Assembly: GCF_050920415.1 (NCBI RefSeq) | Contig: NZ_CP169309.1 | Direction: 5' to 3' (one strand) | Length of the DNA: 64,000 nt | From: Escherichia coli | Lineage (GTDB): Bacteria; Pseudomonadota; Gammaproteobacteria; Enterobacterales; Enterobacteriaceae | Shown here: positions 41,065 to 56,698 of the stretch, piece after piece | How positions within the stretch are numbered: position 1 is the first letter of the stretch | Layout of the letters: every line of letters begins with the position of its first letter | Position numbers and translations under genes: made by a program | The notes under the pieces: model-generated | The model's input: only the letters and a program-made list of their open reading frames with translations | Databases searched by the model: none | Told to the model about the DNA's origin: nothing

Positions 41065-41295
41065 TTACAGCTGATCAATATTGATCACGTTCCAATATGC
41101 TGGCGAGAAAAGGACTTGCCTGAAGAGCAATATCCAGCAGATAAAGCCCCCGAATAACGTGATTACGTGCGATCCTGGCAAGATGAAAATGATAACCAGT
41201 ATCACGATAATAACGATATGCCAGAAAATCCATTGATCAAAAATGAATATCGATGTTTTTTGCTTTTTCTTATTAGTAATGCAAAAATGGCTCAT
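41065..41295 (-). CDS. Hypothetical small membrane protein (76 aa), unannotated candidate
   Basis: ORF MSHFCITNKKKQKTSIFIFDQWIFWHIVIIVILVIIFILPGSHVITLFGGFICWILLF... has a Lys-rich N-terminus followed by one or two hydrophobic helices; lies in AT-rich DNA, so a chance ORF cannot be excluded. Confidence 0.25.
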   Translation of the reverse strand: MSHFCITNKKKQKTSIFIFDQWIFWHIVIIVILVIIFILPGSHVITLFGGFICWILLFRQVLFSPAYWNVINIDQL

Positions 41296-41663: not shown

Positions 41664-44531
41664 ATGGGCATCAAACAACACAATGGGAATACCAAAGCCG
41701 ATCGTCTCGCTGAATTAAAAATCCGTTCGCCCTCCATTCAACTGATAAAATATGGCGCTATTGGTTTGAATGCAATTATCTTTTCCCCCCTGCTGATAGC
41801 TGCTGATTTAGGAAGTCAAAATGGCACCAATATTACTATTAATGATGGTGACAGAATTACAGGAGATACCGCCGATCCATCAGGAAACCTCTATGGTGTA
41901 ATGACCCCAGCAGGAAACACGCCTGGCAATATCAACCTGGGTGATGATGTCACCGTCAATGTCAACGACGCCTCTGGATATGCAAAGGGAATCATTATTC
42001 AGGGCAAGAACAGCTCTCTGACAGCTAACCGACTTACAGTAGATGTTGTTGGTCAAACCTCTGCCATCGGCATTAATTTAATTGGTGACTATACACATGC
42101 TGACTTAGGCACAGGCAGCACCATTAAGAGTAACGATGACGGCATCATTATTGGGCATAGCTCAACACTAACAGCCTCTCAATTCACCATTGAAAACTCG
42201 AACGGTATAGGCCTAACCATCAATGACTATGGCACCAGTGTCGATCTTGGAAGCGGTAGTAAAATCAAGACCGATGGAAGTACAGGTGTTTATATCGGTG
42301 GTCTCAACGGCAATAACGCCAACGGTGCTGCGCGTTTTACGGCGACAGACCTGACAATCGATGTTCAGGGCTACAGCGCCATGGGAATAAACGTACAGAA
42401 AAACTCTGTTGTCGATCTCGGAACAAACAGTACCATTAAAACCAATGGCGATAATGCACACGGCCTCTGGAGCTTTGGCCAGGTGAGCGCGAATGCACTC
42501 ACTGTTGATGTAACTGGAGCCGCTGCCAATGGCGTCGAAGTTCGTGGTGGTACAACCACTATCGGTGCTGATAGCCATATTTCTTCCGCGCAGGGCGGTG
42601 GCCTCGTAACCAGTGGTTCAGACGCGACAATCAATTTTTCTGGCACGGCAGCGCAACGAAACAGCATCTTTTCCAGCGGTTCTTATGGTGCCTCAGCCCA
42701 GACGGCAACGGCTGTTATCAACATGCAAAATACCGATATTACGGTTGATCGTAATGGCAGTCTGGCGCTGGGTTTGTGGGCGCTCAGCGGCGGTAGAATA
42801 ACCGGAGACAGTTTGGCTATCACCGGCGCGGCAGGAGCCAGGGGGATTTATGCCATGACCAACAGCCAGATCGATCTCACGAGCGATCTGGTCATTGATA
42901 TGAGTACACCCGACCAGATGGCCATCGCAACGCAACATGACGATGGTTATGCCGCCAGCCGCATCAACGCCTCGGGTCGTATGCTTATCAACGGTAGCGT
43001 TCTTTCTAAAGGTGGGCTAATCAATCTGGATATGCACCCTGGGTCGGTTTGGACAGGTTCTTCCCTCAGCGATAATGTCAATGGCGGAAAACTGGACGTT
43101 GCAATGAATAACAGCGTCTGGAACGTAACAAGTAATTCTAATCTCGACACGCTGGCGCTGAGCCATTCAACTGTCGATTTTGCCAGCCACGCGTCAACTG
43201 CCGGCACATTTACCACATTAAACGTAGAGAACCTTAGCGGTAACAGTACCTTTATTATGCGTGCTGATGTTGTTGGCGAGGGTAATGGCGTTAATAATAA
43301 AGGAGATTTATTGAATATCTGCGGGAGTAGTGCTGGTAATCACGTATTGGCTATCCGTAACCAGGGCAGCGAGGCCACAACGGGAAATGAAGTTCTGACA
43401 GTGGTAAAAACCACTGACGGCGCGGCCTCGTTCAGCGCGTCTTCTCAGGTTGAGTTGGGGGGATATCTGTATGATGTGCGTAAAAATGGCACTAACTGGG
43501 AGCTTTATGCTTCCGGGACAATTCCGGAGCCGACTCCTAATCCAGAGCCCACACCAGCTCCCGCTCAGCCCCCCATAGTCAACCCCGATCCTACGCCTGC
43601 CCCCGCTCCCACGCCTAAACCCACCACGACCGCAGATGCTGGCGGCAATTATCTCAATGTCGGTTACTTATTGAACTATGTTGAAAACCGTACGCTGATG
43701 CAACGGATGGGTGACCTGCGAAATCAGGGTAAAGACGGTAATATCTGGTTGCGCAGTTATGGGGGAAGCCTGGACTCCTTTGCCAGTGGCAAACTGAGCG
43801 GCTTTGACATGGGTTACAGCGGTATCCAGTTTGGTGGGGATAAACGTCTCTCTGATGAAATGCCGTTGTATGTCGGTCTGTATATTGGCTCAACACATGC
43901 ATCGCCGGACTATAGCGGAGGCGACGGTACCGCACGTTCAGACTACATGGGAATGTACGCCAGTTACATGGCACACAACGGTTTTTACAGCGATCTCGTT
44001 GTAAAAGCATCGCACCAGAAAAATAGTTTCCACGTACTGGACAGTCAGAACAACGGCGTTAACGCCAACGGCACTGCGAATGGATTGAGCATCTCCCTGG
44101 AAGCCGGGCAGAGGTTCAACCTGACCCCTACTGGTTATGGGTTCTATATAGAGCCGCAAACCCAGCTCACATACAGCCACCAGAATGGGATGGCTATGAA
44201 GGCGAGTAATGGTCTCAATATACATCTGAATCACTACGAATCGCTGCTGGGGCGTGCCAGCATGATACTGGGATATGACATCACCGCAGGCAACAGCCAG
44301 CTGAATGTCTATGTGAAGACTGGCGCTATCCGCGAGTTTTCAGGGGATACCGAATATCTGTTGAACAACTCCCGGGAGAAGTACAGTTTCAAAGGTAATG
44401 GCTGGAATAACGGCGTGGGAGTCAGTGCACAGTATAACAAACAGCACACATTCTATCTCGAAGCGGATTACACGCAGGGTAACCTCTTTGATCAGAAGCA
44501 AGTCAACGGAGGATATCGCTTCAGCTTTTAA
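41664..44531 (+). CDS. ycgV: Autotransporter adhesin (YcgV-type; type Va secretion)
   Basis: 955-aa ORF; GGAG SD upstream; repetitive Gly/Thr/Asn-rich beta-helix passenger; Pro-rich linker PEPTPNPEPTPAPAQPPIVNPDPTPAPAPTPKPTTT; C-terminal beta-barrel ending ...GGYRFSF. Confidence 0.9.
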   Translation: MGIKQHNGNTKADRLAELKIRSPSIQLIKYGAIGLNAIIFSPLLIAADLGSQNGTNITINDGDRITGDTADPSGNLYGVMTPAGNTPGNINLGDDVTVNVNDASGYAKGIIIQGKNSSLTANRLTVDVVGQTSAIGINLIGDYTHADLGTGSTIKSNDDGIIIGHSSTLTASQFTIENSNGIGLTINDYGTSVDLGSGSKIKTDGSTGVYIGGLNGNNANGAARFTATDLTIDVQGYSAMGINVQKNSVVDLGTNSTIKTNGDNAHGLWSFGQVSANALTVDVTGAAANGVEVRGGTTTIGADSHISSAQGGGLVTSGSDATINFSGTAAQRNSIFSSGSYGASAQTATAVINMQNTDITVDRNGSLALGLWALSGGRITGDSLAITGAAGARGIYAMTNSQIDLTSDLVIDMSTPDQMAIATQHDDGYAASRINASGRMLINGSVLSKGGLINLDMHPGSVWTGSSLSDNVNGGKLDVAMNNSVWNVTSNSNLDTLALSHSTVDFASHASTAGTFTTLNVENLSGNSTFIMRADVVGEGNGVNNKGDLLNICGSSAGNHVLAIRNQGSEATTGNEVLTVVKTTDGAASFSASSQVELGGYLYDVRKNGTNWELYASGTIPEPTPNPEPTPAPAQPPIVNPDPTPAPAPTPKPTTTADAGGNYLNVGYLLNYVENRTLMQRMGDLRNQGKDGNIWLRSYGGSLDSFASGKLSGFDMGYSGIQFGGDKRLSDEMPLYVGLYIGSTHASPDYSGGDGTARSDYMGMYASYMAHNGFYSDLVVKASHQKNSFHVLDSQNNGVNANGTANGLSISLEAGQRFNLTPTGYGFYIEPQTQLTYSHQNGMAMKASNGLNIHLNHYESLLGRASMILGYDITAGNSQLNVYVKTGAIREFSGDTEYLLNNSREKYSFKGNGWNNGVGVSAQYNKQHTFYLEADYTQGNLFDQKQVNGGYRFSF

Positions 44532-49957: not shown

Positions 49958-50240
49958 CAATTTACTCTGCTCTGATATTTTTTAACTACCTGTTATATTT
50001 TTTACCAAATCATGATGATTTTTTCTGCGCTAATCGCAAACCAAACGTCGCTGGCTGGCTAATAAACAGACTTTATTTAATTACTCTATTTCACCCTTAT
50101 TTATCCCTTTAATCTCCTTTTCCAAAATGCCTGACAGTTCGCAGAATGAGATTTCGATCATGCAGTTAGTGCGATCCTGAACTAAGGTTTTCTGATACTT
50201 GAATACCGTTTTGTTCGGTTTCGCCCAAGGAGAATGATTG

Positions 50241-51938
50241 ATGAAAGCCACCGCCCCTCCTCGCCCGCAAAAAATAGCGTTAATTCCCGCCTGCGTTTTG
50301 TTGTGTTTCGCTGCGCTAGCGGTGCAGGCAGAAGAAACGCCAGTAACGCCACAGCCGCCTGATATTTTGTTAGGGCCGCTGTTTAACGATGTGCAAAACG
50401 CCAAACTTTTTCCGGACCAAAAGACCTTTGCTGATGCCGTGCCGAACAGCGATCCGCTAATGATCCTTGCAGATTATCGAATGCAGCAAAACCAGAGCGG
50501 CTTTGATCTGCGCCATTTCGTTAACGTCAATTTCACTCTGCCGAAAGAGGGAGAGAAATATGTTCCGCCAGAAGGGCAGTCGCTGCGCGAACATATTGAC
50601 GGACTTTGGCCTGTATTAACGCGTTCTACCGAAAACACCGAAAAATGGGATTCTCTGTTACCGCTGCCGGAACCTTATGTCGTGCCGGGCGGACGTTTTC
50701 GCGAGGTATATTACTGGGACAGTTACTTCACCATGTTAGGGCTTGCCGAAAGCGGTCACTGGGATAAAGTCGCGGATATGGTGGCCAATTTTGCTCATGA
50801 AATAGACACTTACGGGCATATTCCCAACGGCAACCGCAGTTACTATTTAAGCCGCTCGCAACCGCCATTCTTTGCCCTGATGGTAGAGTTACTGGCGCAG
50901 CATGAAGGCGATGCCGCGTTGAAGCAATACCTGCCGCAAATGCAAAAAGAATATGCTTACTGGATGGACGGTGTTGAAAACCTGCAAGCCGGACAACAGG
51001 AAAAACGCGTTGTAAAACTTCAGGATGGTACCCTTCTCAACCGCTACTGGGACGATCGCGATACGCCACGACCAGAGTCATGGGTGGAAGATATTGCCAC
51101 CGCCAAAAGCAACCCGAACCGGCCTGCCACTGAAATTTACCGCGACCTGCGCTCTGCCGCTGCGTCTGGCTGGGATTTCAGCTCGCGCTGGATGGACAAT
51201 CCGCAGCAGTTAAATACCTTACGCACCACCAGCATCGTACCGGTCGATCTGAACAGCCTGATGTTCAAAATGGAAAAAATCCTCGCCCGCGCCAGCAAAG
51301 CTGCCGGAGATAACGCGATGGCAAACCAGTACGAAACGCTGGCGAATGCCCGTCAAAAAGGGATCGAAAAATATCTGTGGAACGATCAACAAGGCTGGTA
51401 TGCCGATTACGATCTGAAAAGTCATAAAGTGCGCAATCAGTTAACCGCTGCCGCCCTGTTCCCGCTGTACGTCAATGCGGCAGCGAAAGATCGCGCCAAC
51501 AAAATGGCGACGGCGACGAAAACACATCTGCTGCAACCAGGCGGCCTGAACACCACGTCGGTGAAAAGTGGGCAACAATGGGATGCGCCAAACGGCTGGG
51601 CACCGTTGCAGTGGGTCGCGACAGAAGGATTACAAAACTACGGGCAAAAAGAGGTGGCGATGGACATTAGCTGGCACTTCCTTACCAATGTTCAGCACAC
51701 CTATGACCGGGAGAAAAAGCTGGTGGAAAAATATGATGTCAGCACCACCGGAACAGGGGGCGGCGGTGGCGAATATCCATTACAGGATGGCTTTGGCTGG
51801 ACCAATGGCGTGACGCTGAAAATGCTGGATTTGATCTGCCCGAAAGAGCAACCGTGTGACAATGTTCCGGCGACGCGTCCACTCAGTGAATCAACAACAC
51901 AGCCGCTAAAACAAAAAGAGGCGGAACCTACGCCTTAA
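50241..51938 (+). CDS. treA: Periplasmic trehalase
   Basis: 565 aa from ATG 50241 ([32 protein letters not shown]...); AAGGAGA SD 7 nt upstream; signal peptide; termini differ from the K-12 sequence I recall. Confidence 0.94.
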
Positions 51939-52090: not shown

Positions 52091-52216
52091 CCTCTATTTA
52101 TATTTTTCCCCACTCCCCATTCTCCCTGACAATTTTCTTGTGGAACAAAGTGTTATTTAAGAAACAAGCAAATCATTCTGTCTCTTTAGACAAATTTTGA
52201 CATCAAACATGATCTT

Positions 52217-52250
52217 TTTCGCTATATATGTAAGTATATATCGGTTTTAA
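52217..52250 (+). promoter_or_regulatory. Candidate sigma70 promoter for the uptake operon (-35 TTGACA 52217-52222; A/T-rich -10 region about 52241-52249)
   Basis: Consensus TTGACA hexamer about 50 bp upstream of the ATG at 52268, followed at 17-19 bp by CTATAT/TATATG; CAGGA SD before the ATG. Confidence 0.4.
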
Positions 52251-52267
52251 TTATCAGGATATTACTT

Positions 52268-53290
52268 ATGTCACTAACCAGACGGAGGTTTACACAGATT
52301 CTTGCGTCGACATTGTTCCTGCATCATCTGCCGTCCTTTGCACAATCAGTCAAATTCTGGGCCTCACTGACGCTTCCCGAAGCCCAAAACATTACACGCA
52401 TCGTCAGCGCAGGCGCGCCCGCCGATTTACTATTGCTGGCTGTCGCGCCAGAAAAAATGGTCGGTTTTTCCTCTTTTGATTTTGCCCGTCAGGCATTAAT
52501 TCCATTGCCAGAGCACATTCGCCAGTTCCCCAGGCTGGGACGACTCGCCGGGCGCGCCAGCACACTCTCGCTGGAAGGGCTTATGGCATTACATCCCGAT
52601 TTGGTCGTTGATTGCGGCAATACGGATGAAACCTGGATCTCCCAGGCACGGCAGGTTAGCGAACAGACACAAATACCCTGGTTATTGCTTAACGGGAAAC
52701 TGGAACAATCAGCAGAACAGTTAACAACGCTTGGCAAAACGTTAGGCGAAGAGCACCGCGCCGCAGAACAAGCCAATCTCGCCAGCCGCTTCGTTGGTGA
52801 AGCTAAGGCATTCGCCACCTCACCCGCCGCTAACCTCAGCTTTTATGCTGCGCGCGGTCCTCGAGGGCTGGAAACGGGCTTACAGGGTTCGTTGCATACC
52901 GAGGCGGCGGAATTATTAGGTTTGCACAACGTCGCGCAAATAGCCGATCGCCACGGTCTGACACAGGTTTCCATGGAAAATCTCCTGCGCTGGCAGCCGG
53001 ATATTATTCTGGTTCAGGAGGCCGTTACTGCAGATTTTATTCGTCGTGATCCTCTCTGGCAGGGCGTGAAAGCGGTTGCGGAACAACGCATCTTATTTTT
53101 AAGTGGCCTGCCCTTTGGCTGGCTGGGTGCCCCGCCGGGAATCAACCGTCTTCTGGGATTACGCAGACTTCACGCCTGGCTGGATCCCGCCATCAATCGC
53201 CAGTTTAAAAGTGACATGCAGCATTACGCCCAACTGTTCTGGCATTGCCCATTAAGTGACGCTGACTATCAAAAATTGGTGGCGAGCTAA
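52268..53290 (+). CDS. Periplasmic substrate-binding protein (FecB/BtuF-like) with twin-arginine-type signal peptide
   Basis: 340-aa ORF MSLTRRRFTQILASTLFLHHLPSFAQS...; RRRF motif then hydrophobic region and AxA-like cleavage site; first gene of a coupled operon. Confidence 0.8.
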   Translation: MSLTRRRFTQILASTLFLHHLPSFAQSVKFWASLTLPEAQNITRIVSAGAPADLLLLAVAPEKMVGFSSFDFARQALIPLPEHIRQFPRLGRLAGRASTLSLEGLMALHPDLVVDCGNTDETWISQARQVSEQTQIPWLLLNGKLEQSAEQLTTLGKTLGEEHRAAEQANLASRFVGEAKAFATSPAANLSFYAARGPRGLETGLQGSLHTEAAELLGLHNVAQIADRHGLTQVSMENLLRWQPDIILVQEAVTADFIRRDPLWQGVKAVAEQRILFLSGLPFGWLGAPPGINRLLGLRRLHAWLDPAINRQFKSDMQHYAQLFWHCPLSDADYQKLVAS

Positions 53291-54270
53291 TGAGAACCGT
53301 AAACGGATGTATTTTGCTGCTGGCAGCTATCAGTATCACTTTTGCCGCCGTAAGTGGGGCTTATCATCTCGATATACAGCAACTGCTGGCGCTCATTCTG
53401 CGTCAAGAAAATGTTCCTGTGCAGGAACAAATTGTCTTCTGGCAAATCCGCGTGCCGCGTATTCTTGCTGCGCTGTTTCTGGGCGCGGCGCTGGCAGGGG
53501 CCGGAACCACCTATCAGGGAATGTTCCGTAATCCCTTAGTGTCACCGGATATTTTAGGCGTCTCCGCCGGTGCCGGACTTGGTGCCTGCGCGGCAATCCT
53601 GTGGGGATTATCCATTGTTTACATCCAGCTGTACGCATTTTGCGGCGGGCTGATGGTGGTCGCGGGCGTCTGGTTGATTACGCGTCGGGTGACCCGCCAC
53701 GATCCGATCTTAACCCTGGTGCTGGTAGGCATTGCGTTAGGAACGTTGTGCGGAGCGGGGATATCGCTAATAAAAACGCTGGCCGATCCTTACACCCAGT
53801 TACCGTCAATTACCTTCTGGTTGCTGGGGGGGCTGTCCACCGTGACCTTACGCGATCTCTGCTATGCTGCACCGATCATTCTCATAGGCTCCTTGCCCCT
53901 GTTTTTTCTCCGCTGGCGCATGAATTTACTCACGCTTTCCGACGACGAAGCCCATTCGCTGGGACTGAACGTGACACGTCTGCGCTTTGGATTGATTGTC
54001 TGCGCCACACTCATCACCGCCAGCACGGTAGCAATAGCGGGCATAATTGGTTGGGTCGGCCTGGTCGTTCCGCACATTGCCCGCTTGTTGACCGGTCATA
54101 ACCATCAGCAGCTATTGCCCATGGCAATGTGTACTGGCGCGATTCTGCTCCTGCTTACCGATACGCTGGCACGCAGCATTGGAACAACAGAAATCCCACT
54201 TGGCATTCTGACCGCTTTTGTTGGTGCACCGTTTTTCCTGTTTTTGTTGTTACGCGGAGGTCGCCAGTGA
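53290..54270 (+). CDS. ABC transporter permease (FecCD family)
   Basis: 326-aa polytopic ORF; start overlaps the upstream stop (TAATG); FecCD-like segment SPDILGVSAGAGLGA. Confidence 0.85.
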   Translation: MRTVNGCILLLAAISITFAAVSGAYHLDIQQLLALILRQENVPVQEQIVFWQIRVPRILAALFLGAALAGAGTTYQGMFRNPLVSPDILGVSAGAGLGACAAILWGLSIVYIQLYAFCGGLMVVAGVWLITRRVTRHDPILTLVLVGIALGTLCGAGISLIKTLADPYTQLPSITFWLLGGLSTVTLRDLCYAAPIILIGSLPLFFLRWRMNLLTLSDDEAHSLGLNVTRLRFGLIVCATLITASTVAIAGIIGWVGLVVPHIARLLTGHNHQQLLPMAMCTGAILLLLTDTLARSIGTTEIPLGILTAFVGAPFFLFLLLRGGRQ

Positions 54271-55025
54271 CTTTGCTTGCCGTCCGTCATGCGTCTCTGG
54301 GTTACTCCCGCCATCCGATGCTACGCGACGTGTCCTTCACCCTGTCGCAAGGAACAATTTGTTGTCTGTTAGGAGCCAATGGTTGCGGCAAAACCACACT
54401 CATGCGCTCCATTCTTGGCGTTATACCGTTATTAAAAGGCGAGATCTTACTGGATAGCCTCCCTGTGCAGACACTCAGCCATCGCCAGCGCGCGCAGGCT
54501 ATTGCCTGGGTGCCGCAGGCGCACGACGGCATTTTTGCTTTTAGTGTGCTGGATATGGTGTTGATGGGCCTGGCCCCCACCATAGGCGCTTTTTCCGTTC
54601 CCGGTAAGCAAGAACGCCTGAAAGCAACGGAGCAACTGGAAAAGCTGGGCATTTTGCATCTGGCGACACGACGCTGGAATACACTTAGCGGCGGTGAACG
54701 TCAGCTGGCTTTAATCGCCCGTGCACTCGTCCAGCAACCGCGCTTGTTATTACTGGATGAGCCTGCCTCCAGCCTCGATTTCGGTCATCAGATCCAACTA
54801 CTGGACACGCTGGCGCAGCTCAAAAATAACGGCATGACAATGCTAATGTCGACTCATCATCCGCTCCATGCCAACGCCATTGCCGACAGCATTATCCAGG
54901 TAGAGCCAGATGGACGAGTAACACAAGGCTTACCGACCGAACAGTTAACAACGAACAAACTGGCTGCCCTGTATCGGGTTTCTGCCGACCAGATTCATCA
55001 TCACCTCTCTGCAATTAGCCACTAA
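54267..55025 (+). CDS. ABC transporter ATP-binding protein (FecE-like)
   Basis: GTG start overlapping the permease stop (GTGA); Walker A GANGCGKTT, signature LSGGERQ, Walker B LLLLDEPASSLD; the track ORF extends upstream in the same frame. Confidence 0.85.
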   Translation: MTLLAVRHASLGYSRHPMLRDVSFTLSQGTICCLLGANGCGKTTLMRSILGVIPLLKGEILLDSLPVQTLSHRQRAQAIAWVPQAHDGIFAFSVLDMVLMGLAPTIGAFSVPGKQERLKATEQLEKLGILHLATRRWNTLSGGERQLALIARALVQQPRLLLLDEPASSLDFGHQIQLLDTLAQLKNNGMTMLMSTHHPLHANAIADSIIQVEPDGRVTQGLPTEQLTTNKLAALYRVSADQIHHHLSAISH

Positions 55026-55034
55026 GGAACAATC

Positions 55035-55847
55035 ATGCTCATTGATGATATTGATTTTGCGGACCTTTACCTGCAGCAACTCAAGCTGGCCCACCGCACA
55101 GAAAAAACGCCGGATCACTGGGATCAACGGGCGGAAAAAATGGCGGAAAATTGCGCCTCGCCTACGGACAGCTACCTGCAACAACTGACCGCTAAAATTG
55201 ATCTGCAAGGCGCGCAGACCTTATTCGATATGGGCTGCGGACCGGGTACCGTATCGCTGGCGCTGGCTGACAAACTCACGACGATTTATGGCATTGATTA
55301 CAGTCAGGGGATGCTGAAGGTTGCCGCCCGTCGCGCCGCCGCGCTAAAGGCAGACAATGTCCACTGGATCCAGCGCGCATGGGAAGAGGACTGGAGTGAC
55401 CTGCCACGCTGCGATATTGCCGTGGCTTCCCGCTCCACTCTGGTGGCTGATATGCGCCAGGCAATGAGCAAACTGAATAATCAGGCACGGCTTCGCGTCT
55501 ATACGACTCATCTGGTCAGCACCTCGTTCGTCTCTCCAGCCATTCAGCGGGCGGCTGGTCGGGAAGTGATCGAATTACCCAACTATATCTTTGCGCTCAA
55601 CGTCCTGTATCAGATGGGAATTTATGCTCACGTTGATTTTATCCGCGGACAAAATTGCCCACAGGATAACAGCACCTGGGAACGTTTTGAGCAGAACGTC
55701 AGCTGGAGTCTGGGCGCGCTTAACGACGATGAGCGTGAGCGGTTATATCGCTGGTATCAACAACAAGATGCTCGTGCCCTCGCCCCTGCCAGCCGCGACT
55801 GGGCGCTCATCTGGTGGGATAGCGTACCGCAAGAGGCACTGCGATGA
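55035..55847 (+). CDS. Class I SAM-dependent methyltransferase
   Basis: 270-aa ORF with SAM-binding motif I (LFDMGCGPGTVSLALA) and acidic motif II (IYGIDYS); AAGGA SD upstream. Confidence 0.75.
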   Translation: MLIDDIDFADLYLQQLKLAHRTEKTPDHWDQRAEKMAENCASPTDSYLQQLTAKIDLQGAQTLFDMGCGPGTVSLALADKLTTIYGIDYSQGMLKVAARRAAALKADNVHWIQRAWEEDWSDLPRCDIAVASRSTLVADMRQAMSKLNNQARLRVYTTHLVSTSFVSPAIQRAAGREVIELPNYIFALNVLYQMGIYAHVDFIRGQNCPQDNSTWERFEQNVSWSLGALNDDERERLYRWYQQQDARALAPASRDWALIWWDSVPQEALR

Positions 55848-56698
55848 TTTTCCTTTCTCAGGCACAAATCGATGCGTTACTGCTGGAAGATATCCAGGGC
55901 GGTGACCTGACCACGCGAGCATTAAATATTGGACACCAGCATGGCTATATAGAGTTTTTTCTCCGTCAGGGCGGCTGCGTCAGCGGCATTTCTGTCGCGT
56001 GTAAGATGTTAACTACGCTGGGATTAACTATTGATGACGCGGTCAGCGACGGTTCACAAGCGAACGCGGGTCAGCGGCTAATCCGTGCGCAAGGTAATGC
56101 CGCAGCACTTCATCAGGGATGGAAGGCAGTCCAGAATGTGCTGGAGTGGAGTTGCGGTGTTTCTGATTATCTCGCTCAAATGCTGGCGTTACTTCGTGAA
56201 CGTTACCCTGATGGCAATATCGCCTGCACCCGAAAAGCAATTCCGGGTACCCGCTTACTGGCCTCGCAGGCAATTCTGGCTGCCGGAGGACTGATTCATC
56301 GTGCCGGATGTGCGGAAACCATATTATTGTTTGCCAACCACCGCCATTTTCTTCATGACAATCAGGACTGGTCAGGCGCAATCAATCAGTTACGTCGCCA
56401 CGCACCCGAGAAGAAAATAGTTGTTGAAGCCGACACGCCGAAAGAGGCAATCGCCGCGTTACGCGCGCAACCAGACGTACTTCAGCTCGACAAATTTAGT
56501 CCGCAACAGGCAACTGAAATTGCGCAAATAGCACCGTCGCTGGCTCCCCACTGCACGCTGGCTCTGACCGGCGGAATTAATCTGACAACACTCAAAAATT
56601 ACCTCGACTGCGGCATTCGCCTTTTTATTACCTCCACGCCTTACTACGCGGCACCTGCTGACATTAAAGTCAGTCTGCAACCCGCAGCCTCTATTTAA
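55844..56698 (+). CDS. ModD-family protein (quinolinate/nicotinate-nucleotide pyrophosphorylase fold)
   Basis: 284-aa ORF MIFLSQAQIDALLLEDIQGGDLTTRAL... with TRKAIPGTR motif typical of the NadC/ModD family; ATG overlaps the methyltransferase stop (ATGA). Confidence 0.7.
   Translation: MIFLSQAQIDALLLEDIQGGDLTTRALNIGHQHGYIEFFLRQGGCVSGISVACKMLTTLGLTIDDAVSDGSQANAGQRLIRAQGNAAALHQGWKAVQNVLEWSCGVSDYLAQMLALLRERYPDGNIACTRKAIPGTRLLASQAILAAGGLIHRAGCAETILLFANHRHFLHDNQDWSGAINQLRRHAPEKKIVVEADTPKEAIAALRAQPDVLQLDKFSPQQATEIAQIAPSLAPHCTLALTGGINLTTLKNYLDCGIRLFITSTPYYAAPADIKVSLQPAASI

Follow-up and report, generated by a model that had tools for sequence, protein, structure and literature searches.

Molybdenum uptake in enterobacteria, as it is generally taught, relies on ModABC together with non-specific anion transporters, while passage across the outer membrane is left to diffusion. 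ModABC belongs to the type I importers and uses a class II binding protein, and many ModABC-like operons end in a gene for ModD. Other metals enter, free or lightly complexed, through TonB-dependent receptors under metal-specific regulators, including ZnuD for zinc, OprC/NosA for copper and FrpB4 for nickel. We know of no TonB-dependent receptor that has been shown to take up an oxyanion.

Another described importer is MolBC-A (HI1470/HI1471/HI1472) of Haemophilus influenzae. This low-affinity system transports molybdate and is repressed by it, MolA binds tungstate as well as molybdate, and the physiological role of the system is debated (PMC4031551). The modD gene, HI1473, lies next to molABC (PMC3928620) and modD is also found in nifUSVW-modD operons (PMC4999443). 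ModD itself has the same two-domain fold as NadC (e.g., Mycobacterium tuberculosis 1QPR), with R-K, H-R, E, D and GG residues common to both. In the literature searched, no paper connects ModD or ModE to a TonB-dependent receptor or to the methyltransferase described below.

Layout of the operon and relatives of its transport proteins

The locus lies in a 64,000-nucleotide stretch of Escherichia coli chromosome (the window), where six genes form an operon in the order binding protein, permease, ATPase, methyltransferase, ModD and TonB-dependent receptor:

52268–53290, + strand: binding protein, class III, Peripla_BP_2 type, with the twin-arginine signal TRRRF
53290–54270, + strand: permease of a type II ABC importer, FecCD/BtuC fold, MolB paralogue
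54267–55025, + strand: ABC ATPase with a GTG start and NCBIfam matches to heme/corrinoid/FecE-type ATPases
55035–55847, + strand: class I SAM-dependent methyltransferase, 270 aa
55844–56698, + strand: ModD, 284 aa, QPRTase fold, type II phosphoribosyltransferase-like
56724–58694, + strand: TonB-dependent outer-membrane receptor of an uncharacterised subfamily

The initial annotation of this DNA placed the methyltransferase and ModD inside a transporter operon, between the ABC ATPase (54267–55025) and the receptor (56724–58694); the coordinates agree with this, as does RefSeq, whose annotation of a 100% identical E. coli chromosome has these six genes. Its claim of translational coupling also stands: the junction reads CTGCGATGATTTTC, in which the ATG of ModD overlaps the TGA of the methyltransferase as ATGA. 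The GTG start of the ATPase, identical in RefSeq, overlaps the permease stop as GTGA, and the receptor gene begins 25 nt past ModD. Of 5426 complete E. coli genomes, 2140 (~39%) carry the pair. A horizontal-transfer island was considered and rejected, with a GC content of 52.5% in the cluster vs. 52.3% and 51.4% in the flanking treA and ycgR. A mobile element was likewise rejected, as all nine "plasmid" matches are rated non-mobilizable and several come from records of chromosome size. No genes for chelator biosynthesis or export occur in or adjoining the cluster.

Databases name the transporter "iron". The top PDB match of the permease is HI1471 MolB (2nq2, E 1.5e-64), ahead of HmuU, FhuB and BtuC. 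The permease and ATPase are 42 and 38% identical, respectively, to confirmed Mol orthologues. In some Haemophilus genomes a single ModD gene stands between MolABC and an orthologue of the E. coli transporter, and the latter set, on the other side of ModD from MolABC, is 58–60% (permease) and 41–42% (ATPase) identical to the E. coli proteins. Judged by these identities, the E. coli ABC transporter is a paralogue, not an orthologue, of MolBC-A. The two systems share the permease/ATPase fold class, a class III binding protein and an adjoining modD; however, the E. coli operon adds a TonB-dependent receptor and a methyltransferase, and its binding protein has a Tat signal. Orthologues of the binding protein mostly share an RR motif (43 of 51). 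The binding protein shows only weak NCBIfam matches, to the FecB, FepB and IsdE models. Among solved structures its closest relative is 4pag (E 3e-25), a "periplasmic binding protein" from structural genomics and ~30% identical to the binding proteins of the cluster. This structure is 38% identical to the binding protein of a Campylobacterales locus that brings together receptor, methyltransferase, ModD, ModBC and binding-protein genes. The match to MolA (3psa) is short, at just E 8.5e-8, and the identity only ~26%; the binding protein therefore need not bind a bare oxyanion.

The receptor carries the marks of a TonB-dependent receptor. The 99% identical P0391 has recorded plug and barrel domains (PF07715 and PF00593), and the translation has a TonB-box-like motif, DTLTV, after the N-terminal signal peptide and ends in ...EYTF, with an aromatic C-terminal F. 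It stays under the cut-off of every NCBIfam TonB model, those of curated subfamilies included: TonB-B12 (TIGR01779) gives 75.9 against a cut-off of 599.7, and the copper model TIGR01778, at E 1e-13, is also far under its cut-off. No close solved structure was found for the receptor. Its orthologue in Pseudomonas aeruginosa lies beside moaA and narGHJI, with a ModE-like palindrome 14 nt before the ATG.

The ModE operator and other regulatory signals

A predicted ModE site and a putative promoter element lie directly upstream of the first gene:

52197–52202, + strand: putative −35 hexamer of the operon promoter, exact TTGACA
52220–52243, no strand assigned: predicted ModE-molybdate operator CGCTATATATGTAAGTATATATCG, overlapping the −10/start region

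The predicted operator, CGCTATATA-N6-TATATATCG, is 17 nt downstream of the TTGACA hexamer. It fits CGNTATATA-N6-TATATANCG with 0 mismatches; no other site in the 64 kb does so at ≤3 mismatches. Compared with the long consensus ATCGNTATATA-N6-TATATANCGAT, 18 of the 20 specified positions are matched, with 0 mismatches in the core from CG to CG. The ModE operator consensus of E. coli is quoted in an earlier study (PMC545781). The K-12 modA operator has two mismatches to the same consensus at a similar distance to the ATG, and the operon box is thus closer to the published consensus than that of modA. The two promoters agree in operator consensus, spacing and placement just 5′ of the first gene.

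The site is conserved. In a phylogenetic footprint 5′ of the first gene, only TTGA, the ModE box and the Shine-Dalgarno sequence are kept; across 10 aligned genera with otherwise diverged flanks, TTGA does not vary, and the box is kept across Enterobacterales and Shewanella. The 82 ModD loci (1.41 Mb) hold 77 ModE sites at ≤2 mismatches, 65 of them directly 5′ of binding-protein, receptor, methyltransferase or ModD genes. Of the remaining 12, five stand just 5′ of ORFs with a modA match, and two are in front of receptor genes truncated by the locus end. Receptor orthologues in Proteus, Morganella, Providencia, Pectobacterium and Shewanella have their own ModE box, and boxes are also found 5′ of stand-alone methyltransferase-ModD pairs and of modABC-like-ModD operons.

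Signals for iron or cobalamin were sought as well. A consensus scan gave no Fur site at ≤3 mismatches near the operon; the best intergenic match, with 6/19 mismatches, is background and is reached by 12% of random windows. Neither the Zur nor the NikR consensus has a match in the leader. No Rfam family, riboswitch or other RNA, exceeded its threshold between 49.5 and 60 kb at E up to 1; the lone match is a chance sRNA match elsewhere, and neither a cobalamin nor a Moco riboswitch was found. A generic sigma-70 and terminator scan returned nothing above the shuffled expectation, the operon promoter having been missed because its −10 is masked by the ModE box. With a conserved ModE operator in place of iron or B12 signals, the operon most likely serves to scavenge Mo or W, and it is quite probable from its sequence that it belongs to the ModE (molybdate) regulon and functions in Mo/W uptake. 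ModE control could nevertheless reflect a need for the operon when Mo is scarce and not import of Mo itself.

The methyltransferase, ModD and their genomic company

The methyltransferase is of class I, as the initial annotation had it. It matches Pfam Methyltransf_31/25/12/11 (E 3e-11 to 7e-7), holds the SAM motif GCGPG and displays the Rossmann-type fold, motif I (GxGxG) and an acidic residue following strand 2. In structure it is a neighbour of methyltransferases that act on small molecules, among them the thiol S-methyltransferase TmtA. The top NCBIfam match, the corrinoid-protein-associated methyltransferase CpaM (NF043040), was rejected, as it scores 44.3 bits vs. a cut-off of 180 and covers the N-terminal part only. 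A fusion of methyltransferase and ModD was also rejected: neither of the long ModD proteins, P0144 and P0146, resembles a methyltransferase. P0144 bears an ABC signature motif. ModC-ModD fusion proteins appear to exist.

The second enzyme belongs to the ModD family. TIGR01334 (modD) gives 502 bits over profile positions 1–277 of 277 (cut-off 178.85), and both QRPTase_N (PF02749, E 2.9e-18) and QRPTase_C (PF01729, E 2.5e-31) are present, while the nadC model TIGR00078 gives 135.2 bits vs. a cut-off of 198.4 and is not reached. The AF2 model has a pLDDT of 96 and aligns with most QPRTases of bacteria and mammals at a TM of ~0.85, 0.89 being the highest value. In the PDB, ModD matches NadC or QPRT entries only, with no solved ModD structure among them. 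That ModD lacks a described function, as previously remarked, agrees with the class of TIGR01334 in NCBIfam, "hypoth_equivalog", and with the papers found, which give none.

The initial annotation counted a lack of the NadC/ModD phosphoribosyl-binding residues against its reading. Most of the active-site residues of NadC are kept. ModD conserves R130/K131, H152/R153, E195, D/E216 and G243/G244; across 34 ModD sequences, E195, D/E216 and G243 each occur in 33 and G244 in 31. The quinolinate-binding residues of the M. tuberculosis enzyme (R105, R139, K140, H161, R162 and K172) are kept except R105, which is K94 in ModD, and K172. NadC K172/D173 corresponds to F163/A164, where F163 is invariant (34/34) and position 164 is variable; Q214 and K217 are specific to ModD. 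The exchange of Lys172 for an invariant Phe indicates that ModD is not a quinolinate enzyme. It appears to keep the PRPP/ribose-phosphate site and not the quinolinate site.

The two enzymes keep different company. The comparison loci were the closest 80 of 431 candidates, and the context counts are biased towards Enterobacterales: in 73 of 82 ModD loci a molybdate-related ABC importer (the type II system of the cluster, MolABC or a ModABC-like system), the methyltransferase or a Mop/ModE homologue lies within 6 kb of ModD. ModD occurs with ModA, the TIGR01581 permease and ModC in Yersinia, Cedecea, Pasteurellaceae and Photobacterium, and with ModBC in Treponema and Campylobacterales. In Pectobacterium, a di-Mop molbindin gene is directly upstream of ModD. 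The neighbouring genes of the cluster are those of molybdenum (Mop, moaA, nar and modABC) rather than of tungstoenzymes. The methyltransferase is always found with this transporter, even without ModD, and does not travel with ModABC or MolABC, which take bare molybdate; for a cargo of bare molybdate there would be no obvious task for it. The distribution of ModD thus follows molybdenum, and that of the methyltransferase follows this transporter.

The initial annotation counted separation of the pair from the transporter in other genomes against its reading, and such separation is seen in part. ModD stands next to molABC or in modABC-like operons without the methyltransferase, five-gene versions that lack ModD and have perfect ModE boxes occur in Shewanella and Edwardsiella tarda, and the pair is found alone in Edwardsiella. 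The pair is therefore not an obligate unit for one imported molecule.

Cargo of the transporter and roles of the enzymes

The best reading, in which we have moderate confidence, is that the operon encodes a TonB-energised route of Mo/W uptake, induced by molybdenum starvation as part of the ModE regulon and equipped with ModD. ModE binding, inducibility and substrate are all predictions from the DNA. When molybdate is plentiful, ModE-molybdate would occupy the operator overlapping the promoter and turn the operon off; under molybdenum starvation, the operon would be transcribed. The outer-membrane receptor would capture a Mo or W species and move it to the periplasm with energy from TonB. The Tat-exported class III binding protein would then deliver it to the BtuCD-type importer, a paralogue of MolBC-A by homology whose substrate is proposed here. 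In the cytoplasm, the methyltransferase may act on the cargo or its ligand. ModD, a general companion of Mo importers, would most likely make or modify a small non-quinolinate compound that handles the incoming molybdenum. The specific chemistry given for these two steps is the least certain part and should be regarded as doubtful. ModABC, by comparison, has neither an outer-membrane component nor enzymes. ZnuD, OprC/NosA and FrpB4 share the design of a receptor under a non-Fur metal regulator that is coupled to a dedicated inner-membrane importer. They differ in that the cargo here would be an oxyanion-forming metal, and no sequence relationship beyond the receptor superfamily was found.

The alternatives concern the nature of the cargo and of ModD. 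A possible, if improbable, alternative is that the cargo is an organic or sulfur-bearing Mo compound, such as a Mo-chelate ("molybdophore"), thiomolybdate or a molybdopterin-type cofactor or a product of its breakdown, and that the methyltransferase, with ModD where present, dismantles or modifies the ligand and releases the metal. Such uptake would parallel the piracy of heme, B12 and siderophores. It would suit TonB receptors and type II (BtuCD-fold) importers, which normally carry bulky chelates or cofactors, and it is in keeping with the other relatives of the permease (HmuU, FhuB and BtuC), the distance of the binding protein from MolA, the absence of the methyltransferase from bare-molybdate systems and the small molecules on which its structural neighbours, TmtA among them, act. 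In P. aeruginosa, the receptor gene overlaps the gene for a Sec-signal protein matching a sulfite-oxidase (Moco-binding) fold, but this match is weak (E 4e-6 and 0.008). The cluster also has no chelator genes in or beside it, the Rfam search of 49.5–60 kb found no Moco riboswitch, and ModD at least, which also accompanies plain ModABC, is not specific to a ligand. One form of this scheme, in which the receptor and importer would take up organic or S-ligated Mo (a Moco-type cofactor or fragment, thiomolybdate or a foreign Mo-chelate) and the methyltransferase, with ModD where present, would strip or recycle the ligand, is unlikely. A tungstate-selective system, or one for vanadate or another oxyanion, with a methyltransferase that detoxifies the look-alikes tellurite, selenite and arsenite, is very unlikely. 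ModE also responds to tungstate, and MolA binds it; however, the matches on which detoxification would draw are all far under their family cut-offs, and molybdenum genes rather than tungstoenzyme genes neighbour the cluster.

The initial annotation, sound on the enzymes, their coupling, their position and the undescribed function of ModD, had framed the operon as one of siderophore or cobalamin type whose cargo is ribosyl-phosphorylated or methylated after import. This framing, which has no tie to molybdenum, is disfavoured and extremely improbable. The database names "iron ABC transporter" and "siderophore receptor" speak for it, as do the Fec, Fhu, Btu and Hmu superfamilies to which the binding protein, permease and ATPase belong and the corrinoid-associated model that heads the NCBIfam matches of the methyltransferase, although at 44 bits vs. 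180. Yet the Fur match is at background level, no cobalamin riboswitch or relevant Rfam match was detected, the conserved regulatory element is a perfect ModE box, the ABC part is paralogous to MolBC-A and ModD is tied across phyla to Mo transporters and, by published account, to nif genes (PMC4999443). The last alternative is that ModD is no enzyme here and that its basic former quinolinate/phosphate pocket holds molybdate, making it a cytoplasmic oxyanion-binding or hand-off protein. The conserved basic residues K94, R130, K131, H152 and R153, the loss of the substrate-specific K172, the presence of ModD beside every type of Mo importer whatever other enzymes are present and the apparent ModC-ModD fusions would all fit. 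The modD phenotype in Rhodobacter, too, is reportedly mild, as stated in the description of TIGR01334. However, E195, D216, GG and the S/T residues of the phosphate loop are kept as well (80–97%), and these serve no purpose but PRPP/Mg chemistry, which argues for retained catalysis; a purely binding role is quite unlikely.

The system occurs in Citrobacter, Proteus, Morganella, Providencia, Serratia, Pectobacterium and Shewanella in addition to ~39% of E. coli, and the receptor is also found in P. aeruginosa. If a ModE-controlled, TonB-energised route is confirmed, it would add an outer-membrane step to the picture of molybdenum uptake, and thousands of "iron transporter" annotations would be corrected. 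It would also bear on how bacteria compete for the metal in the inflamed gut and urinary tract, two sites at which anaerobic respiration is driven by molybdoenzymes. ModD, an orphan family for 30 years, is now found together with an uncharacterised methyltransferase in a genetically tractable organism and with a simple predicted inducing condition, Mo starvation, so that the function of both can be tested directly. Uptake of organic Mo, if true, would be the first bacterial pathway of molybdenum "piracy" and would provide the first biochemical roles for ModD and the methyltransferase.

Gene cluster and its distribution in E. coli

The window is E. coli chromosome, with 6.8 kb that is 100% identical to NZ_CP169399. 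Six closely packed plus-strand genes lie in it between treA (50238-51938) and ymgE/ycgR.

Genes of the cluster
52268-53290, +, periplasmic binding protein
53290-54270, +, FecCD-type permease
54267-55025, +, ABC ATPase; GTGA overlap with the permease gene
55035-55847, +, methyltransferase
55844-56698, +, ModD; shares ATGA with the methyltransferase stop codon
56724-58694, +, TonB-dependent receptor; starts 25 nt 3' of ModD

The junctions, including the shared ATGA, are those given in the initial annotation. Of 5426 complete E. coli genomes, 2140 have the methyltransferase-ModD pair, with a chromosomal location in essentially all cases. K-12 lacks the cluster and carries 0.6 kb with ycgY in its place; in the K-12 comparison locus (L085, 1241500-1248500), homology resumes in the final 24 nt of the receptor gene (window 58671-58694), and since this 3' end is all that is left, the cluster was probably lost there by replacement. 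A foreign island was considered and rejected: the GC content of 52.5% is in line with that of the flanking genes, which points to a presence/absence polymorphism.

The predicted ModE operator

The cluster had been framed as a siderophore or cobalamin uptake operon. This reading is now disfavoured, as consensus and best-match scans of the leader found no Fur box, the leader has no riboswitch, and it contains instead a box for the molybdate repressor ModE. This box (52220-52243) reads CGCTATATA-TGTAAG-TATATATCG, agrees without a mismatch with the core of the consensus for E. coli ModE, ATCGNTATATA-N6-TATATANCGAT (quoted in PMC545781), and is the sole match at up to three mismatches in the 64-kb window. 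The authentic K-12 modA operator has two mismatches and a similar distance to the ATG (19 nt, versus 24 nt at the cluster). A perfect TTGACA precedes the box by 17 nt, so that a repressor bound there would mask the -10/start region. Conservation across leaders from ten genera is confined to the TTGA, the box and the Shine-Dalgarno sequence. The key finding is that the conserved regulatory element of the cluster is a predicted ModE operator. The window has a single Fur-box-like site (41185-41203, GAAAATGATAACCAGTATC, 3 mismatches), some 460 nt 5' of a ycgV-like 955-aa autotransporter ORF (41664-44531).

Transporter and enzymes

Among solved structures, the permease is closest to MolB (HI1471), from the Haemophilus influenzae molybdate/tungstate importer MolBC-A (E 1.5e-64), with HmuU, FhuB and BtuC ranking behind it; H. 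influenzae modD (HI1473) neighbours the MolBC-A genes (PMC3928620). The permease is 42% identical to its MolBC-A counterpart and the binding protein about 26%; judged by sequence, the E. coli transporter is a paralogue of MolBC-A, not an orthologue. The binding protein is nearer to 4PAG, an unannotated structural-genomics entry, than to MolA, and 4PAG shares 38% identity with the binding protein encoded at a Campylobacterales locus with receptor, methyltransferase, ModD and ModBC genes. Its N-terminus (MSLTRRRFTQIL..., window 52268-52350) carries a twin-arginine (Tat) signal kept in 43 of 51 orthologues. A gene called modD was deleted in a study of Tat substrates in ExPEC, which gives no result for it (PMC7549933); we speculate that the deleted gene may be that of the Tat-signal binding protein. 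No close solved or curated relative of the receptor was found.

Both enzymes belong to the families first assigned to them. The methyltransferase belongs to the class I SAM enzymes (Pfam Methyltransf_31/25, invariant D-x-GCGPG motif); its model (pLDDT 88) is about equally like many small-molecule methyltransferases and so indicates no substrate. ModD reaches 502 bits with the TIGR01334 profile (cut-off 179), falls below the NadC family cut-off (135 versus 198 bits) and has both Pfam QPRTase domains. Its AlphaFold model (pLDDT 96) matches most quinolinate phosphoribosyltransferases from bacteria and mammals at a TM-score of about 0.85 (best 0.89) and 22-27% identity; the comparison found no solved ModD structure.

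The expected NadC/ModD active-site residues are kept in part, as aligned to Mycobacterium tuberculosis NadC and 34 diverse ModD sequences. ModD shares the fold and catalytic residues of NadC: R130/K131, H152/R153, E195, D/E216, the G243/G244 loop and S264 are conserved in the family, as judged from the 34 sequences, and correspond to the predicted machinery for PRPP, magnesium and phosphate. NadC Lys172 is lost, however, being an invariant Phe163 in ModD; Arg105 is replaced by Lys94, and Gln214 and Lys217 are peculiar to ModD. With the former residues kept and Lys172 lost, ModD looks like a functional type II phosphoribosyltransferase unable to bind quinolinate in the NadC manner. Two long ModD-family proteins (P0144, 524 aa; P0146, 495 aa) have a C-terminal ModD domain and no similarity to the methyltransferase; the ABC signature ISGGERQR in the N-terminal part of P0144 suggests ModC-ModD fusions.

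Association with molybdenum genes and proposed role

ModD loci were collected by scanning one genome per species; the best 80 of 431, together with two from earlier look-ups, gave 82 loci, and as these 80 are the closest, the counts are biased towards Enterobacterales. Transporter, methyltransferase and ModD occur together in 47 of the 82. The co-occurrence with TonB-dependent receptors sought after the initial annotation was found in 45 of these (Escherichia, Citrobacter, Raoultella, Enterobacter, Serratia, Symbiopectobacterium, Proteus, Morganella, Providencia, Pectobacterium, Erwinia, Affinibrenneria), the remaining two ending before the receptor gene. ModA/permease (TIGR01581 or ModB)/ModC genes adjoin ModD in 15 of the 82, and the methyltransferase-ModD pair stands alone in six (Edwardsiella, Leminorella and one short contig with an ATPase). 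In four Haemophilus loci, ModD is flanked by an orthologue of the E. coli transporter and, on the opposite side, by true MolABC (MolB, E 5e-165 to PDB 2nq2). In published comparative work, modD also occurs in NifA-regulated iscN-nifUSVW-modD operons of alphaproteobacteria (PMC4999443).

Across the 1.41 Mb of these loci (best 80 of 431 plus two), 77 sites were found that fit the ModE box at up to two mismatches, 65 of them directly upstream of binding-protein, receptor, methyltransferase or ModD genes. The remaining 12 include five a short way 5' of ORFs with a modA match and two before receptor genes cut off by the locus end. Proteus, Morganella, Providencia, Pectobacterium and one Serratia have a second box before the receptor gene. 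In Pectobacterium (L003, 4643-5071), and likewise at L042 and L043, a gene for a 142-aa di-Mop molbindin (TIGR00638, E 2.8e-40) lies immediately 5' of the cluster.

Some loci are unusual. A Campylobacterales MAG (L080, 2199-11783; L083 is similar) has a larger cluster comprising a second methyltransferase, a luciferase-like monooxygenase, the receptor, three small ORFs (one TauE/SafE-like), the methyltransferase, ModD, a 133-aa ORF, ModB and ModC, which hints at further chemistry around the module. In Edwardsiella hoshinae (L022, 10643-13432), a 405-aa ThiF/MoeB-like adenylyltransferase, a 226-aa ORF and an EamA-type transporter lie 3' of the stand-alone pair. A 3.2-kb Collinsella sp. MAG contig (L004) is most likely a binning contaminant and not an actinobacterial copy, given 98-99% protein identity to the E. 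coli ATPase, methyltransferase and ModD.

A search started from the receptor sequence found five-gene versions (binding protein, permease, ATPase, methyltransferase, receptor) without ModD, with perfect ModE boxes, in Shewanella (L088, 5216-11004) and Edwardsiella tarda (L089, 5282-10968). In Edwardsiella species, a methyltransferase-ModD pair also occurs on its own, behind a box of its own (L022, L036, L044). The methyltransferase is thus the constant partner of the transporter, and ModD a separable module accompanying molybdenum import of any kind. A Pseudomonas aeruginosa receptor orthologue (45% identical, in >2000 assemblies) adjoins moaA and narGHJI (L087, 8963-11525), linking the receptor family to molybdenum independently of methyltransferase and ModD. 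A ModE-like AT-rich palindrome, CGTTATGTAAAAAAATGCATAACG, lies 14 nt 5' of its ATG in an otherwise GC-rich leader, and the gene overlaps one for a 182-aa Sec-signal protein with a weak sulfite-oxidase/Moco-domain match.

The literature searched ties neither ModD nor ModE to a TonB-dependent receptor or the cluster methyltransferase, although regulon databases may list the site; no passage of a 2020 review of molybdenum in pathogens connects molybdate uptake with an outer-membrane or TonB component. The analysis shows the order and coupling of the genes, the families they belong to, the conserved operator, the homology to MolBC and the genomic association of ModD, methyltransferase and receptor with molybdenum genes, whereas all statements on regulation and substrate are predictions. 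That the operon belongs to the ModE regulon and takes up molybdenum or tungsten is likely; the fuller statement, which adds roles for both enzymes, is somewhat better than evenly supported, and the specific chemistry proposed for methyltransferase and ModD is doubtful. The main rival within this reading concerns the cargo, which may be a chelate, thiomolybdate or pterin-type compound rather than the bare oxyanion; such a cargo would account for both the need for a methyltransferase and the use of a TonB and BtuCD-type route. Less weight is given to a tungstate or detoxification role for the operon, and to a non-catalytic, anion-binding ModD.

In the predicted ModE-controlled uptake operon, ModE-molybdate would repress transcription, and during starvation a molybdenum or tungsten species would enter by way of the receptor, binding protein and importer. 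The methyltransferase may act on the imported cargo or its ligand, and ModD may catalyse a PRPP-dependent reaction of a substrate other than quinolinate, helping to handle the incoming metal.
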